IMG/VR virus record: IMGVR_UViG_2711768068_000018
Coordinates: 1 to 5,558 of that record
Length of the DNA: 5,558 nucleotides
Strand: one strand, 5' to 3'
Source of the DNA: a virus
Lineage: Duplodnaviria > Heunggongvirae > Uroviricota > Caudoviricetes
A model generated the notes under the pieces. It searched no databases, had not been told where the DNA came from, and saw nothing but the letters and a program-made list of their open reading frames with translations. Each line of letters opens with the position of its first letter. Within the stretch, counting starts at the first letter, position 1. The translations under genes were made by a program, and so were the position numbers. Of this stretch, positions 1 through 5,558 are shown one piece after another.

Positions 1-152
1 ACCCAGACACGCAGAGTCTCCGGCGTACAGCCAATCTTTGGAGCAATGGAACAAATTGTCGCCCATTGTGAGTCATATTCGCCCTGACTTTCCAGAACCA
101 TACGGGCTGCCCGTTGACGGACTTCAGGGGAAAAACGAGTATTTTTAGTCAT
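1..152 (-). CDS. IS3-family transposase OrfA, N-terminal part (partial, runs off window)
   Basis: Hand translation of the reverse strand from ATG at 152-150: [50 protein letters not shown]..., matching the recalled N-terminus of IS629/IS1203-type OrfA (HTH region). A GAGG-type RBS lies upstream on the minus strand (gagaaagaggtaaacagg before ATG). Not in the ORF track because it has no stop within the window. Confidence 0.8.
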
Positions 153-206
153 CCTGTTTACCTCTTTCTCAGGAAGTTTAGTCTCCAGGATTCCCGGGGC
201 GGTTCA
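1..206 (-). mobile_element. IS3-family insertion sequence (IS629/IS1203-like), left end only; element continues beyond the window start
   Basis: Minus-strand OrfA starts at 152 and runs off the window. Plus-strand 201-206 GGTTCA is the reverse complement of the TGAACC terminus of IS3-family inverted repeats (minus strand reads TGAACCGCCCCGGGAATCCTGGAG...), so the element/flank junction is placed at 206/207. Family assignment is from recalled similarity, not a search. Confidence 0.7.
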
Positions 207-298
207 TTTGCAGGAACTTATTTTTCACAGACAGCAATGATGCCTGTCAATATATTATTAATATGCGGATTGTTTCAGTTACAGATGCTTTATTAAGG

Positions 299-340
299 AA
301 AAAACAGCCAGCACTGACTTTCGGTGGAGAGGTGCTGGCT
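299..340 (-). terminator. Putative intrinsic terminator acting on minus-strand transcripts
   Basis: Perfect 9-bp inverted repeat 306-314 (AGCCAGCAC) / 332-340 (GTGCTGGCT), with a possible inner 5-bp extension (318-322 / 327-331) around a GGTG loop. On the minus strand it is followed by a run of six T (plus-strand A run 299-304). Confidence 0.4.
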
Positions 341-475
341 CAAAAGGATAGTTGGATTTCACATGATACTTATATCTGGCAGTACATTTTCTGACAGACA
401 GTGACGGGGGGTGTCAAGATATTGTGTCATTTATAACCTGAGTCAGGGGGGGCCCCTATTAAGTTGTCAAGCATG

Positions 476-1672
476 TTATGACGCCTGCGGGGTATAAAAA
501 GTCCCGTCGCGCATCATGGCGAACAGAACGTCGCAGCGTCGTCTCGCCAGGGCGATAAGCGCCTGATTGTGTCGTTTTCCCTGACTCATTTTGCGGGTGT
601 AGTAAGCCCTGGAGAGCGGATCCCTGAGCGCGGCGAAGGCCGACAGGAACAACGCCCGTTTGAGAGCTTTATTACCCCGTCGCGAGGGATGCTCACCGCG
701 TATTGACGAGCCGGATCGCCGAGTTACCGGCGCAAGGCCAGCATAAGCAGCGAGATGTGCGGCAGAGGCGAAGGCGCGGCAGGCGACCTCGGTGAGGAGT
801 CTGGCTGCGGTCCTGACACCGACTCCGGGCATACTGGTCAGGACCGGGTAAAGAGGGTGAGCAAGAACTCGCTGTTCTACCTCAAGCGCCACCTCGTCTC
901 TTTGCTTACGCAGCGTGATGAGCTGGAGTGCCAGACGTGGCAGTACTACGGCAGCGGCATTCGTGCCGGGAACGACGACGGTTTGTTCGGCCAGTGCCTG
1001 AGCTATGTCTGCTGCAAGGCGTTTACCCAGACGAGGCGCAAGTTTGCAGAGCTGGGCTGCCAGCTTCTTCTCACCCAGCGAAGCGAGTTTTTCTGGTGAG
1101 GGATATCGCTGGAGAAGATCGAGTACCGCCGGGTGATCAAGTCTCGGACCGAGAACGCGCTCCAGTGCCGGATGTATCTGGGTCAGAAGGCCGCGGATAC
1201 GGTTGCTGGCCTGCGTTGTCTGTGCGGCAAGATCATCATCGAAGCCGCAGAGCATGGAGAGTTCGGCGATTTGCTCGTCAGCCAGTTTCAGCGTGCGTAG
1301 CGCGTGAGGCAGGGTACGGGCAGCTTCGGCAATGATGGCAGCGTCACGAGCATCAGTTTTAGCTTCACCGGCGTGTAAGTCGGCTATGCGGCGCATGGCC
1401 AGTCCAGGGAGGTATCCGACAAGGACTCCTTCTGAGCGGGCAACGGCGACAGGTAACGCACCGATGGTAGCTGGCTGATCAACAACCAGCAGTATCTGAC
1501 CATGTTGTTTCAGGTCAGATATTAGCGACCTGAGTTTGTTTTCGTCGTTGGGTAATGCTTTATCGAACAGGCGTTTACCTGAACGATTAATGGCTACAGC
1601 GTGATGCGTATCTTTACCGACATCAACGCCGATAAAGACCTGGACGGATTCGTAATCGCTGGATTCGGTCAT
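476..1672 (-). CDS. IS110-family transposase / DEDD-type recombinase
   Basis: 398-aa ORF. N-terminal VFIGVDVGKDTHHAVAI is the hallmark first Asp motif of the RuvC-like DEDD domain of IS110-family transposases; the C-terminal region has YAGLAPVTRRSGSS, the conserved Ser-containing motif of the family's Tnp domain. AGGGAG Shine-Dalgarno 6 nt upstream of the ATG on the minus strand (1673-1690). Confidence 0.9.
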   Translation of the reverse strand: MTESSDYESVQVFIGVDVGKDTHHAVAINRSGKRLFDKALPNDENKLRSLISDLKQHGQILLVVDQPATIGALPVAVARSEGVLVGYLPGLAMRRIADLHAGEAKTDARDAAIIAEAARTLPHALRTLKLADEQIAELSMLCGFDDDLAAQTTQASNRIRGLLTQIHPALERVLGPRLDHPAVLDLLQRYPSPEKLASLGEKKLAAQLCKLAPRLGKRLAADIAQALAEQTVVVPGTNAAAVVLPRLALQLITLRKQRDEVALEVEQRVLAHPLYPVLTSMPGVGVRTAARLLTEVACRAFASAAHLAAYAGLAPVTRRSGSSIRGEHPSRRGNKALKRALFLSAFAALRDPLSRAYYTRKMSQGKRHNQALIALARRRCDVLFAMMRDGTFYTPQAS

Positions 1673-1689
1673 TCTGTCTCCCTTGTATA

Positions 1690-1870
1690 TGGGTTAACCA
1701 GATAACCACGGGGAGCAGGTACCGGCATCCACGTTACAGACGGTCCCGGCAAAAGTGCCTGACCTGACCCCTATTAGCGGTTACCAGCGCCCCACCAGAC
1801 CCGGTGACATCACCCCCCGGATCATGGACGACTGGGGGCAGTAATCATGCCGGGTCTGGCTGGCTAACAC
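1690..1870 (-). ncRNA. Candidate bridge RNA (IS110-type guide RNA) in the 5' leader of the IS110-family recombinase; hypothetical
   Basis: About 180-200 nt GC-rich non-coding leader between the putative -10 (minus strand TATAAT at 1879-1874) and the recombinase RBS, with no plausible ORF. In the IS110 subgroup (e.g. IS621) the bridge RNA is encoded in exactly this position. Structure not verified by eye. Confidence 0.25.
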
Positions 1871-1965
1871 CCCATTATAAGGGGTACGAATAAAGTAACG
1901 GGGCCGGAATGTTATCTGGCATTTTTAGCAGAGCCTGAATGCCATAATCACGGCTCCCGGCGTTG

Positions 1966-1999
1966 GCCGTCAGTGGGTGACACTGGCGGCTTTTTGTTT
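1966..1999 (+). terminator. Strong intrinsic terminator, tR'-like, upstream of the lysis genes
   Basis: 10-bp stem 1966-1975 (GCCGTCAGTG) / 1981-1990 (CACTGGCGGC, one G-U pair), 5-nt loop GGTGA, followed by TTTTTGTTTT (1991-2000). Its position just before the holin gene matches lambdoid tR' at the end of the short late leader (6S) transcript. Confidence 0.6.
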
Positions 2000-2045
2000 T
2001 CCTTTACTTTCATTTTCTGTCGGCGGTGACGGAGACATACATCAG

Positions 2046-2252
2046 ATGGAAAAAATCACAACGGGTGTGTCATACACCACGTCAGCGGTGGGGACGGGAT
2101 ACTGGCTACTGCAGTTGCTGGACAAAGTCTCTCCGTCCCAGTGGGTGGCAATAGGTGTACTGGGGAGTCTGCTGTTTGGCCTGCTGACGTATCTGACTAA
2201 CCTGTATTTCAAAATCAGGGAGGACCGCCGTAAGACGGCGCGGGGGGAGTAA
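2046..2252 (+). CDS. Holin, phage-21 S-like class II pinholin (68 aa)
   Basis: Translation [68 protein letters not shown] closely resembles recalled phage 21 S68 / E. coli EssD-type holins. Two TMDs (Gly/Ala-rich TMD1, hydrophobic TMD2) and a charged C-tail. The ORF-track start at 1977 is a GTG inside the terminator loop; ATG 2046 with a GGAGA Shine-Dalgarno (2030-2034) is the likely true start. Confidence 0.85.
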
Positions 2253-2256
2253 AGCG

Positions 2257-2616
2257 ATGAAGAAAAAATACGAACTGGGTGTTAAAGGGATAAATAATTA
2301 CCCGGATAAGATTACTGTTACTGTGGCACTGGAAATTGGTGGGTATCCGTCACTGTTGTTGCCAGATGTGGCGATTAGTCTTGACCGTACTGAAGGTGCC
2401 ACGCTGGAGTTTTACGAAGCTGAGGCGAAAAAGCAGGCGAAGCAGTTTTTCATGGATGTTGCTGCCGGGTTATGTGAAGGGGATGGTCCGTTGCCGGAAA
2501 AGCGGCCCATCATTTTAGAGGCGCAGGATGTGTTGATAACCTACAGAGGAAAACTACCGGGAATAATTACTGGTTCTCTGAAGACTACTGAAGACTTAAC
2601 ATATCCAGGGATTTGA
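2257..2616 (+). CDS. Hypothetical soluble acidic protein (119 aa) between holin and endolysin
   Basis: ATG 4 nt after the holin stop with a GGGGGGAG Shine-Dalgarno at 2242-2249, indicating translational coupling. No TM segment and no motif I recognise. This position is empty in phage 21 and lambda. Confidence 0.7.
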   Translation: MKKKYELGVKGINNYPDKITVTVALEIGGYPSLLLPDVAISLDRTEGATLEFYEAEAKKQAKQFFMDVAAGLCEGDGPLPEKRPIILEAQDVLITYRGKLPGIITGSLKTTEDLTYPGI

Positions 2617-2641
2617 AATCGATAAATCCTGATAAATATCC

Positions 2642-3175
2642 ATGAACGCAAAAATCAGATACGGCCTGTCGGCTGCCGTTCTGGCGCTGATTGGTGCAGG
2701 GGCGTCTGCGCCTGAAATCCTCGACCAGTTTCTGGATGAAAAGGAAGGTAACCACACCACAGCATACCGTGATGGTACGGGTATCTGGACCATCTGCCGC
2801 GGTGCCATCCTGGTGGATGGTAAACCTGTCGTCCCGGGCATGAAGTTGTCGAAGGAAAAATGCGACCAGGTTAACGCCATTGAGCGTGATAAGGCGCTGG
2901 CATGGGTGGAGAAAAACATCAAAGTGCCGCTGACCGAACCCCAGAAAGCGGGGATCGCGTCATTCTGTCCGTACAACATTGGTCCCGGTAAGTGTTTCCC
3001 GTCGACGTTTTACAGACGAATTAATGCAGGTGATCGAAAAGGTGCCTGCGAAGCGATTCGCTGGTGGATTAAGGACGGTGGCAGAGACTGCCGTATTCGT
3101 TCAAACAACTGTTACGGTCAGGTATCCCGTCGTGACCAGGAGAGCGCGCTGGCGTGCTGGGGAATCGACAGATAA
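2642..3175 (+). CDS. SAR endolysin (GH24 T4-type lysozyme family, phage-21 R-like)
   Basis: 177 aa. N-terminal weakly hydrophobic Gly/Ala-rich signal-anchor-release segment (YGLSAAVLALIGAGASA), then E35/D44/T50 in the spacing of the GH24 lysozyme catalytic triad (EGNHTTAYRDGTGIWTICRG). Overall collinear with recalled R21 and E. coli RrrD-type lysozymes. Confidence 0.92.
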   Translation: MNAKIRYGLSAAVLALIGAGASAPEILDQFLDEKEGNHTTAYRDGTGIWTICRGAILVDGKPVVPGMKLSKEKCDQVNAIERDKALAWVEKNIKVPLTEPQKAGIASFCPYNIGPGKCFPSTFYRRINAGDRKGACEAIRWWIKDGGRDCRIRSNNCYGQVSRRDQESALACWGIDR

Positions 3176-3314
3176 GAAGAATATTTTGCTGAAAAATGAG
3201 GTTTGCTTACATGGACGGATAACACGAAATCCTGCAAATTGGCAAAATGTAAGTGAATAAAGTCAAAACAGTTGTTTAACACTCAGGCACCGTAATGATG
3301 CCTTTGTCATTTCT

Positions 3315-3336
3315 GCGCATCTCACGCGCATCTCAC
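3315..3336. repeat. Perfect tandem duplication of an 11-bp unit (GCGCATCTCAC x2)
   Basis: 3315-3325 and 3326-3336 are identical, in the intergenic region about 110 bp upstream of the Ant-like gene. Confidence 0.6.
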
Positions 3337-3445
3337 AACACAGAACCTTTCAGGATGACCCTTGAGGATACCGGTTTGGCTGTCGGTGCCTTTCTGTGGG
3401 CTGGATTCCTGTGAGACAAGGTTCATCACTAAAAGGAAATAACCG

Positions 3446-4015
3446 ATGAATATGATGGCCGTGCCGTTTCACGGCAACTCTCTTTATGTAGTTAACCATA
3501 ATGGCGAACCATACGTTCCCATGAAACCTGTCGTTGCGGGGATGGGGCTGGCCTGGCAATCACAGTTGGCTAAGTTAAGACAGCGTTTTGCGTCAACTAT
3601 AACGGAAATCGTTATGGTTGCTGAGGATGGGAAACAACGCAATATGGTGTCCATGCCACTTCGAAAACTTGCCGGCTGGCTACAAACCATTAATCCCAAC
3701 AAAGTAAAACCCGAAATCCGCGATAAGGTCATCCGGTATCAGGAAGAGTGCGACGATGTTCTTTACGAGTACTGGACGAAGGGTTTTGTCGTTAATCCCC
3801 GTAAAATGAGCGTGATGGAAGAACTCAACCAGGCTTGTGCTGACATGAAACGGGATAAAAACATTGCCAGTGTGTTTGCTACCGGGCTGAATGAGTGGAA
3901 ACAGGTTAAAGCCGCGCATGTATCAAAAATCCGTACGCTGGTAAATGAAGCGAATATGCTGATTGATTTTGTCCTGGCTGATACAGGCAAAGGGAAAATA
4001 ACAAAGGCGGATTGA
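3446..4015 (+). CDS. Putative antirepressor-like protein (Ant/AntA N-terminal-domain type), 189 aa
   Basis: ORF with an AGGA Shine-Dalgarno (3433-3436). The N-terminal region (VPFHGNSLYVVNHNGEPYVPMKPVVAGMGLAWQSQ...) resembles, from memory, antirepressor N-terminal domains annotated in enterobacterial prophages. Domain family not confirmed by a search. Confidence 0.7.
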   Translation: MNMMAVPFHGNSLYVVNHNGEPYVPMKPVVAGMGLAWQSQLAKLRQRFASTITEIVMVAEDGKQRNMVSMPLRKLAGWLQTINPNKVKPEIRDKVIRYQEECDDVLYEYWTKGFVVNPRKMSVMEELNQACADMKRDKNIASVFATGLNEWKQVKAAHVSKIRTLVNEANMLIDFVLADTGKGKITKAD

Positions 4016-4026
4016 TGGGGTGGCTA

Positions 4027-4161
4027 ATGATATCAGATAAACTCATAACGCTGGTGAAGAGCCTCTGTGTACTTGTCGGCATTTCATTTTTAGTCATGCT
4101 GGTTGCCATTTTCTTTTCCACCGCCTGGCGAGTCCTGACGTTATCGGGACTGGTGGGGTGA
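4027..4161 (+). CDS. Possible small single-pass membrane protein (44 aa), not in the ORF track
   Basis: ATG 4027 to TGA 4159-4161: [44 protein letters not shown]. One hydrophobic helix. Tiles exactly between the Ant-like stop (4015) and the Rz start (4169); GGGG 6 nt upstream. Could be a chance ORF. Confidence 0.3.
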
Positions 4162-4168
4162 AAGAGAG

Positions 4169-4636
4169 ATGAACCGTGTTCTGTGTGTGGTGATTATTGT
4201 CATGGCGGTTGGCTGTGGTGCGCTGTGGCTGGCAACAAACCATTACCGTGACAACGCGCTCACCTACAAAGCGCAGCGCGATAAAAAAGCCAGAGAGCTG
4301 GAACAGGCGAATGCCACCATTACTGACATGCAGGTGCGCCAGCGTGATGTTGCTGCGCTCGATGCAAAATACTCGAGGGAGTTAGCCGATGCGAGAGCTG
4401 AAAATGAAACTCTGCGTGCTGATGTTGCCGCTGGTCGTAAGCGCCTGCGGATCAACGCCACCTGCTCCGGTACCGTGCGTGAAGCCACCGGCACCTCCGG
4501 CGTGGATAATGCAACCGGCCCCCGACTGGCAGACACCGCTGAACGGGATTATTTCATCCTCAGAGAACGGTTGATGACAATGCAGAAGCAGCTGGAAGGG
4601 GCACAGGACTATATCCGCACTCAGTGCCTGAACTAA
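4169..4636 (+). CDS. Rz: Rz inner-membrane spanin (i-spanin)
   Basis: 155 aa with an N-terminal TMD ([19 protein letters not shown]) then [32 protein letters not shown]...[24 protein letters not shown], collinear with recalled lambda Rz. AGAGAG Shine-Dalgarno at 4163-4168. Confidence 0.93.
4389..4574 (+). CDS. Rz1: Rz1 outer-membrane lipoprotein spanin (o-spanin), embedded in a different frame within Rz
   Basis: 61-aa ORF wholly inside Rz in another frame. Signal peptide plus lipobox (LVVSAC, Cys20) and a proline-rich mature part ([33 protein letters not shown]) that is nearly identical in pattern to recalled lambda Rz1. GAGGGAG Shine-Dalgarno 7 nt upstream. The true start may be Met6 (4404). 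Confidence 0.85.
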
Positions 4637-4998
4637 GTTTTGCTGATGCGCCGTATCGTCGCCGTATTCCTGCATTAACAGAGACCGCAGCCCGACAGGG
4701 AGACTCCTCTGCGAGAGTGTGCGGGGATAATCAAAAACGATACACACCGGGGTTTACCGCGTAAACGGAGCGCGGCGTTCTCCCCTCATGGTCGCCCGTC
4801 CGGTGCGATGGTGGAAGAAACTGGAATCTGTTCAATAAAAAAACTGCCGTGTTGGAGTCACAGCAGTAATGTACTGATTGGGTAGAAGATTATTATTGTT
4901 ATGCTTTATTCTTATTCTATATGGCTGATTATTTCAATTCGGAATTAATACAGCTAATGTCTGTGAGTTTTTATAAATTCAGCAATATAAAGAAATAG

Positions 4999-5226
4999 TT
5001 ATATGAACAGCCATCGCAGAGCATACTGTGTATCATTCTTTTTTATAGTCAACTGACGGGCATATTTTATGTCTGCTGCCAGCTCCCGGCGGCAAGATTC
5101 AATGACCCACGCAGAAAAATTTTCTGAACCTTTCTGGTCAAGAGCGATGTTAATTTGTTCAATCATCTGGTTTGGAAATCGGATGTTGCGGGTTGTTGTT
5201 CTGCGGGGCCGGTTTTTCGATGACAT
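4999..5226 (-). CDS. Small DUF3950/YlcI-YnfO-like protein, possible ribbon-helix-helix DNA-binding fold (75 aa)
   Basis: MSSKNRPRRTTTRNIRFPNQMIEQINIALDQKGSENFSAWVIESCRREL... resembles recalled YlcI/YnfO-family small prophage proteins found beside terminase genes. AGAGGA-type Shine-Dalgarno on the minus strand just upstream of the ATG at 5226. Confidence 0.65.
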   Translation of the reverse strand: MSSKNRPRRTTTRNIRFPNQMIEQINIALDQKGSENFSAWVIESCRRELAADIKYARQLTIKKNDTQYALRWLFI

Positions 5227-5267
5227 TTTCTTTCCTCTGGTGACAAGCTATATGGCGAGGATTTTAC

Positions 5268-5558
5268 ATGGCTGTGCTTCGTACGTTACCGGGCAGAATC
5301 AAAACTCTGAACACCCGGCGGGTGAATATTCTGAAGGGTGAACAGCGTCGTGTCAGTGGCAGTGCACGTGTTTCCCTCAAGCGTCATATCTGGCTCAGGG
5401 ATGCCGGGCAGTGCTGTCTCTGTGGTCGTGTGGTTGACCTCTGTGACAGTGAACTCGATCACCGCATTGCACTTCAGTTCGGTGGTGGTAATGAGGAGAC
5501 GAATCTCTGGACGCTCTGTACCGAATGCCATCGACAAAAGTCTGCTCGTGAAGCGGCG
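5268..5558 (+). CDS. HNH endonuclease, phage packaging-associated type; 5' part, runs off window end
   Basis: Hand translation from ATG 5268 (GAGGA Shine-Dalgarno 5257-5261) gives 97 codons with no stop: MAVLRTLPGRIKTLNTRRVNILKGEQRRVSGSARVSLKRHIWLRDAGQCCLCGRVVDLCDSELDHRIALQFGGGNEETNLWTLCTECHRQKSAREA. CxxC...DH...N...CxxCH is the canonical HNH zinc-finger nuclease motif. Missing from the ORF track only because it has no stop within the window. Confidence 0.85.
   Translation, partial: MAVLRTLPGRIKTLNTRRVNILKGEQRRVSGSARVSLKRHIWLRDAGQCCLCGRVVDLCDSELDHRIALQFGGGNEETNLWTLCTECHRQKSAREAA

Follow-up and report, generated by a model that had tools for sequence, protein, structure and literature searches.

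A phage 21-type pinholin gene with a single start codon and the apparent vestige of another in a lambdoid lysis cassette

Phage 21 reads its holin gene S from two in-frame starts, which yield the antiholin S71 and the holin S68. How would lysis be timed in a phage whose S gene offers only one of them? This question is raised by gene 2046–2252 on the plus strand of a 5,558-nucleotide stretch of viral DNA (positions 1 to 5,558 of IMG/VR virus record IMGVR_UViG_2711768068_000018; Duplodnaviria, Heunggongvirae, Uroviricota, Caudoviricetes), the whole of which is referred to here as the window. The initial annotation, made from the letters alone, likened the gene product to S68 of phage 21, paired it with a signal-anchor-release (SAR) endolysin, noted a single Met and no upstream in-frame ATG, GTG or TTG before a terminator, and concluded that no N-terminally extended antiholin could be made. 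It named two further small genes of the cassette, of 119 and 44 aa, as candidate timers. We find that gene 2046–2252 is most probably a functional, single-product pinholin of the S21 family, the same allele as the S genes of phages 434 and H-19B, and that it forms a natural "S68-only" system in which timing would come from the dynamics of its first transmembrane domain (TMD) and from its expression level. That degree of confidence applies to this reading as a whole, including the view that the single-start allele is functional and selected.

Membership of the S21 family is well supported. A Pfam scan matched residues 2–64 of the product to the 64-position model PF04971 (Phage_holin_2_1; E = 1.4e-32), and the protein shows 76% identity, with zero gaps, to phage 21 S (OL657228). 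TMD1 is predicted at residues 4–25 (2055–2120), with a mean Kyte-Doolittle hydropathy of 0.75 and 50% Gly, Ala, Ser or Thr, compared with 0.74 and 55% for TMD1 of the S21-type sequence. TMD2, predicted at residues 33–55 (2142–2210; mean hydropathy 1.59), contains a glycine zipper, G37xxxS41xxxG45 (G37-V-L-G-S41-L-L-F-G45, 2154–2180), at the same position as in S21. The N-terminus reads M-E-K, where S21-68 has M-D-K, and the C-terminal tail is basic with a net charge of +3. We infer a topology with two TMDs and both termini inside (N-in/C-in), and the SAR-like TMD1 is predicted to be able to leave the membrane; by homology, the protein would form small heptameric channels of about 2 nm, wide enough to depolarise the membrane but not to let a cytoplasmic endolysin through. 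The endolysin of the cassette has an N-terminal segment (residues 7–24) that is 61% Gly, Ala, Ser or Thr, and residues E35, D44 and T50 are present. As far as sequence can show, therefore, the gene encodes an S21-type pinholin with a SAR endolysin as its partner, and both of these proposals of the initial annotation stand.

Translation of the open reading frame (ORF) at 2046–2252 gives 68 residues, of which Met1 is the sole Met. Upstream of ATG 2046 the frame is open back to GTG 1977, which would give an ORF of 91 aa, and the 22 codons between the two include CTG, TTA, CTT and GTC among others and zero ATG, GTG or TTG. GTG 1977 itself was rejected as a holin start because it sits in the loop of a terminator hairpin and has no Shine-Dalgarno (SD) sequence. 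This hairpin (1965–1991) has an 11-bp stem followed by a T-run, with a predicted energy of -21.6 kcal/mol (z -2.6); its position is kept in relatives whose S begins MYQM, and the phage 434 annotation marks the same element as a terminator.

Three codons before ATG 2046 there is an ATA codon, which falls in the same alignment column as the first ATG of all dual-start relatives, whether of the MYQM, MDQM, MNQM, MKSM or MYRM type. Since it aligns under every one of these first starts, the ATA is, on the alignment, the vestige of a first start codon. A dual start in this family consists of two in-frame starts one to three codons apart, with a basic residue in the extension; gene 2046–2252 has ATA at the start-1 position, and the would-be extension is His-Gln. 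The gene cannot make a Lys-bearing antiholin of the S21-71 type. The initial annotation was thus right about the single Met (MEKITT...), about the upstream codons from the hairpin to ATG 2046 and, for this Lys-bearing form, about the missing antiholin; its account of phage 21 S likewise agrees with the M-K-S-M N-terminus and the two coding sequences (CDSs) in OL657228. One GenBank record, GCA_025143085.1 (L158, 430–648), does annotate this holin from the ATA, as a 72-aa 'MHQMEKITT...' with an extra Leu; the annotation owes this choice to the family model, and it is no evidence of ATA use. The 'MHQM' protein P0004, considered as an intermediate that still had its ATG, was rejected for a similar reason: its DNA reads ATA, which the annotation had taken as the start.

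The coordinates of the holin gene, its leader and the other features of the window are collected in Table 1.

Table 1. Features of the 5,558-nt window
Feature	Position	Strand	Remarks
IS3-family (IS629/IS1203-like) end, start of orfA	1-206	-	
ISEc20 (IS110-like), complete, ~1.45 kb	446-1903	-	DEDD_Tnp_IS110; name from PGAP; transposase 476-1672
Intrinsic terminator-like hairpin, GGCCGTCAGTG-GGTGA-CACTGGCGGCT and T-run	1965-2001	+	~45 nt 5' of holin start
Translation initiation region	2022-2034	+	GGCGGTGA 2022-2029 at family SD position; GGAG 2031-2034
ATA codon, apparent vestigial first start	2037-2039	+	Met1 of the 71-aa form; aligned with dual-start relatives
Holin S, 68-aa S21-family class II holin (pinholin)	2046-2252	+	PF04971; phrog holin families
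DUF1327/YdfR-family gene, 119 aa, soluble	2257-2616	+	PF07041, E 5e-44; phrog_406, unknown function
SAR endolysin, R21-type lysozyme, 177 aa	2642-3175	+	PF00959
Ant-like antirepressor (P22_AR_N + ORF11CD3)	3446-4015	+	moron between R and Rz
Small hydrophobic ORF (ORF48), 48 aa	4015-4161	+	phrog_4906, E 5e-30, unknown function; PGAP 48-aa hypothetical protein
Rz (i-spanin)	4169-4636	+	PF03245, E 5e-50
Rz1 (o-spanin), embedded in Rz	4389-4574	+	+1 frame; PF06085, E 1.7e-21
DUF3950 (YlcI/YnfO-family) gene	4999-5226	-	
HNH endonuclease, start only	5268-5558	+	

Is a single start the normal state of this family? To answer this, 150 loci were assembled, 70 from species-representative genomes and 80 from IMG/VR, and the in-frame codons 5' of the Met equivalent to that of S68 were read in the DNA, which avoids the bias of gene callers. 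Among 65 genes of the species set, 59 have a dual start with Lys or Arg (MKSM, MYRM, MLRM, MKM, MRM and others), four have a dual start with no basic residue, and two have no dual start, namely a pseudogene and an E. albertii gene that carries the allele of the window. The initial annotation raised the possibility that a single start is the usual state of the family; these counts do not bear it out. A profile search of 1.84 billion representatives returned only 224 family members, whose N-termini are mixed (MITM, MTDM, MNM, MKM, MKIM, single Met); thus the dual Met is the norm in the S21 family, though not universal.

Genes at least 94% identical to the window holin, here called the EKITTG clade, have two leader types. 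In type (a), GGGAGACGGGGT-ATG-TAC-CAG-ATG, the product begins MYQM (also MDQM or MNQM), a dual start without Lys or Arg. Type (b), that of the window, reads GACGGAGAC-ATA-CAT-CAG-ATG, which would spell IHQM. Because relatives in Enterobacter and Scandinavium read MYRM-EKITTG, the simplest series suggested by the sequences is a stepwise decay of the first start, from MYRM to MYQM to IHQM. In the Enterobacterales a dual start is normally cationic (MKSM, MYRM, MLRM, MRM); the E. coli EKITTG clade is the group that has lost the basic residue. The dual start has also changed independently in two other lineages: Klebsiella relatives (L155–L157) read GAG-TTG-CGT-ATG or GAG-TAG-CGT-ATG, with TTG or a stop two codons 5' of the ATG, and a Citrobacter-type relative on a metagenome contig (L154) reads GTG-TTT-CAG-ATG.

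Two side observations concern the alleles themselves. An IMG/VR locus, L084, has the ATA-CAT-CAG-ATG junction joined to a different upstream segment, in which an in-frame ATG lies ten codons up (M-S-R-L-H-G-D-I-H-Q-M...), about 30 nt 5' of the holin ATG; it could provide a long, Arg-containing N-terminal extension. Several database alleles (P0001, P0017, P0018, P0020 and P0034) carry in-frame tandem duplications, namely TTSTTS, LTNLTN, LTYLTY, LFGLLFGL and a 31-residue duplication of TMD1, and may have arisen by slippage or be inactivated genes of cryptic prophages.

The single-start allele is neither rare nor new. A 60-nt segment spanning its leader and start (2001–2060) was found in 692 of the 5426 complete E. 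coli genomes searched. These hold 2838 copies of it (median four per genome), and in 697 of 699 records the match has an identity of 99% or more. Among 28 phage records with this leader, 22 are Shiga toxin (Stx) 1a-converting phages; H-19B, YYZ-2008, 2B8 and 434 are included in the 28. The MYQM leader is found in 1952 of the 5426 genomes and in 237 phage records, many Stx2 phages among them; the two-ATG extension MYQ, MDQ or MNQ (L073, L074, L131, L145 and others), with its first ATG about 9 nt before the S68-equivalent Met and no basic residue, is the commonest E. coli allele. In curated annotation the single-start form has been present since H-19B S (AAD04658) was deposited in 1998 as a 207-bp gene 'similar to phage 21 S', and again with phage 434 in 2022, and the NCBI Prokaryotic Genome Annotation Pipeline (PGAP) calls the window-type holin at 68 aa (RefSeq WP_000411805; YYZ-2008 gp43). 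Literature discussing its single start was searched for, and none was found.

The decisive evidence that the allele works comes from phage 434, a laboratory phage that forms plaques. Its genome (OL657226), annotated by the Young and Casjens groups, comes from lytically grown virions (PMC9119081). The leader is identical to that of the window at 59 of 60 positions, and the holin, 96% identical and 68 aa long, is annotated as one 'pinholin class II' CDS (CPT_434_72); to phage 21 the same annotators gave two, 'antiholin S21-71' and 'holin S21-68'. Directly after the 434 holin gene come those for the SAR endolysin and the two spanins (i and o); DUF1327, Ant and the small ORF are all missing. Since phage 434 is viable with the leader and holin of the window, the allele works without the extra small genes. 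Selection is indicated by the coding sequence: 27 of 28 type-(b) genes in the locus set are intact, and 17 distinct type-(b) DNA alleles give pS (synonymous) 0.18, pN (nonsynonymous) 0.019 and pN/pS 0.10, with residues 1–57 invariant.

Could a different gene have taken over the part of S71? DUF1327/YdfR, the 48-aa membrane ORF or both might act in trans as a separate antiholin or lysis regulator. Both belong to the lysis cassette, and their positions favour co-translation: the DUF1327 gene, inserted between holin and endolysin, has its SD GGGGGGAG (2242–2249) within the 3' end of the holin gene, and ATG 4015 of ORF48 overlaps the stop of ant (TGATG), the 44-aa version of the initial annotation being a start at ATG 4027. 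ORF48 codes for a conserved small membrane protein, variants of which are kept between R (or ant) and Rz in at least 28 loci, with or without ant; DUF1327 is confined to Escherichia and Shigella prophages; and separate antiholins do exist in other phages (T4 RI/RIII, P1 LydB, P2 LysA). However, the genes do not co-vary with the start. DUF1327 lies directly 3' of the holin in 12/26 single-start, 34/56 MxQM and 7/20 MKSM loci and in 0/39 other cationic ones, and Fisher tests of single-start loci against MxQM (p 0.24) and MKSM (p 0.55), with p-values that are indicative only, gave no association. ORF48 accompanies all E. coli start types (IHQM, MYQM and MNQM) and is not found in phages 434 and 21. 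In 434, in E. albertii and in roughly half of the single-start loci, the cassette consists of holin, endolysin and spanin genes and nothing else. DUF1327 is moreover soluble, its predicted fold gives weak, generic matches only, and the sole published data on YdfR deal with its binding to the N-terminal domain of RNase E and possibly to RNA. With no association across the 150 loci, DUF1327 and ORF48 were dropped as compensators for the single start, the proposal of the initial annotation is left unsupported, and we regard timing in trans as unlikely.

The family SD, GGAGGTGA, lies 4–7 nt 5' of start 1. GGAG 2031–2034, the annotated ribosome binding site of the phage 434 pinholin, is 11 nt before ATG 2046 with a duplex energy of -6.6 kcal/mol. 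We considered that GGAG at this distance was a new SD arising by remodelling of the initiation region, and rejected it: in L014, a phage-21-type prophage locus, a GAGG likewise precedes Met4 by 11 nt, so the arrangement has been kept and nothing but the first ATG has been lost. Pairing in the window is weaker, at -6.6 to -7.4 kcal/mol versus -15.2 for the L014 leader. Predicted mRNA structure around the starts is significant in phage 21 (z -2.9) and the phage-21-type prophage (z -2.6) and not in the leaders of the window (z -1.4) and phage 434 (z -1.45), and the unstructured leader would fit the loss of an element controlling the ratio of the two starts.

Several points weigh against the reading of the gene as a functional, single-product pinholin. 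The loci compared are not phylogenetically independent. The leader is invariant from -44 to -1 in 17 haplotypes, and we rejected this as evidence of selection, since the first ~60 nt of coding sequence, third positions included, are also nearly invariant. Expression, N-terminal or lysis-timing data for this allele were not found in the literature searched. Window positions 207–454 correspond to the DNA directly before position 1902 in YYZ-2008; ISEc20 therefore sits 145 nt 5' of the holin ATG, and with the IS3-family element also upstream, this copy may have lost late-promoter transcription into S. Finally, the stronger SD-like sequence, GGCGGTGA (-10.5 kcal/mol), is 7 nt before ATA 2037, a spacing optimal for the ATA and not for ATG 2046, and some initiation at ATA 2037 is therefore conceivable.

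This last point can be developed into a cryptic dual start, in which ribosomes bound at GGCGGTGA would now and then begin at the ATA, exactly at the start-1 position, and a minor 71-aa isoform (fMet-His-Gln-Met-Glu...) would still act as antiholin. AUA is known to initiate in E. coli, at about 1–2% of AUG in reporters with a range of 0.02–3% (bioRxiv 10.1101/063800), and the GenBank record mentioned above starts the holin there. The expected yield is nevertheless a few percent of the AUG start at most, the His-Gln extension has none of the Lys or Arg that makes S21-71 inhibitory according to secondary sources, and the downstream ATG is chosen by both the curated phage 434 annotation and PGAP. 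The sister alleles argue in the same direction: those with a true first ATG (MYQ, MNQ, MDQ) also have no basic residue, one even carrying Asp, so that the cationic function was lost before the ATG. We consider such an isoform very improbable as the source of timing. That the single start is a functionally meaningless product of decay in defective prophages, with this IS-ridden copy silent, is hardly credible: ISEc20 and the IS3-family end do lie upstream, many of the leader copies in enterohaemorrhagic E. coli genomes (median four) are in degraded prophages and many database alleles of the EKITTG clade have in-frame duplications or frameshifts, yet the viable phages 434 and H-19B carry the same leader and holin, purifying selection is strong (the pN/pS ratio and intact genes given above), and the window ORF and entire cassette are intact.

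For the preferred single-product pinholin we propose the following course of events. Translation would begin at ATG 2046 only, by way of GGAG, in agreement with the curated annotation of phage 434. By analogy with phage 21, the 68-aa protein would insert in the inner membrane with two TMDs, the weakly hydrophobic TMD1 would exit later, and TMD2 would oligomerise through its GxxxSxxxG zipper into small pinholes, collapsing the proton motive force; the membrane-tethered SAR endolysin would then be freed and Rz/Rz1 would finish lysis. With no 71-aa Lys-bearing antiholin, timing would be set by properties of one product. An S21 allele making S68 only reportedly lyses earlier than the wild type. 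In that case the allele of the window would amount to a naturally occurring S68-only clock, the counterpart of the engineered S21-68-only allele. Its rate might depend on the exit of TMD1, tuned by the E2/K3 N-terminus, and on how fast the protein accumulates from a rather weak initiation region. Pore formation by S21-68 is delayed by K3 and favoured by D2 (bioRxiv 10.1101/2021.04.20.440580), and the extra Lys is what makes S21-71 inhibitory (secondary sources).

Perhaps the dismantling of the cationic start, from MYRM through MYQM, MDQM or MNQM to IHQM, was adaptive and not neutral in the EKITTG clade, which serves Stx phages and phage 434. These phages would then have an antiholin-free, retuned lysis clock, with effects on burst timing and on Stx release, and residual ATA initiation or the DUF1327 and 48-aa genes might contribute to this clock where carried; we offer this as a speculation that we ourselves doubt. 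Lysis timing governs the burst size of phages and, in Stx phages, the moment of toxin release, which gives the holin allele some practical relevance. Even in the S21 family the textbook arrangement, a dual start with an antiholin as in phage 21, is not found throughout: in a common E. coli lineage the Lys went first and the start codon followed; this lineage includes phage 434, and most phage records with the window leader are Stx1a-converting. The alleles MKSM, MYRM, MYQM and IHQM form a natural series for gauging what the antiholin contributes to fitness. The window gene itself is no new kind of system, since its family was already known and the allele itself known and annotated; what is new, and only modestly so, is that its ATA is a vestige and that the E. 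coli clade gave up its cationic start step by step.

By the ORF listing and by Pfam and PHROG scans, the window holds a lambdoid lysis cassette on the plus strand. By megablast, positions 1902–5558 are colinear with the Stx1 phages H-19B and YYZ-2008 at 97–97.5% identity. The Ant-like gene is annotated as anti-repressor Ant in YYZ-2008 and is absent from H-19B and phage 434. H-19B Rz (L001, 5584–6156) is annotated at 190 aa, against 155 aa in the window and YYZ-2008; the extra length is probably due to the choice of a start further upstream, or to a difference in sequence where other phages hold the small ORF. The DUF3950 and HNH genes stand after the spanins and before the terminase genes, an arrangement also seen in YYZ-2008, and phage 434 has DUF3950 before cos. 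An Rfam scan of the window at E<=1 gave no match.

Among known systems the nearest are the S genes of phages 434 and H-19B, which have the identical leader type, including GGAG and ATA-CAT-CAG-ATG, and a single CDS for a 68-aa protein 96–97% identical to that of the window. The surroundings differ: DUF1327, Ant and ORF48 are all lacking in phage 434, H-19B carries DUF1327 and no Ant, and the window has ISEc20 upstream and a few substitutions in the C-terminal tail. The MYQM-type S genes of 933W-like Stx2 phages and many E. coli prophages are up to 99% identical over residues 1–68 and sit in the same kind of mosaic cassette, in which DUF1327, Ant and ORF48 may be present or absent, but they keep the first ATG (MYQM, MDQM, MNQM), with no basic residue in the extension. 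Phage 21 S shares PF04971, two TMDs, the GxxxSxxxG zipper, the basic tail and SAR endolysin and Rz/Rz1 partners; it differs in its ATG-AAA-TCA-ATG start (M-K-S-M) and two products, where the window has ATA, a His-Gln extension and one product. EssD of DLP12, of the MKFM type and 78% identical, belongs to the same family and, unlike the window gene, keeps a cationic dual start.

More distantly, S105/S107 of phage lambda is an analogous dual-start holin and antiholin (M-K-M), with an extra Lys making the inhibitor, although it is an unrelated class I protein with three TMDs that forms large holes and serves a cytoplasmic endolysin. Hol of phage HP1 resembles the window gene in being a pinholin paired with a SAR endolysin that has no dual start and no recognisable antiholin, but it is of another family and has another proposed topology. 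Within the S21 family, the Klebsiella prophage holins have a single start like that of the window, reached by an independent loss.
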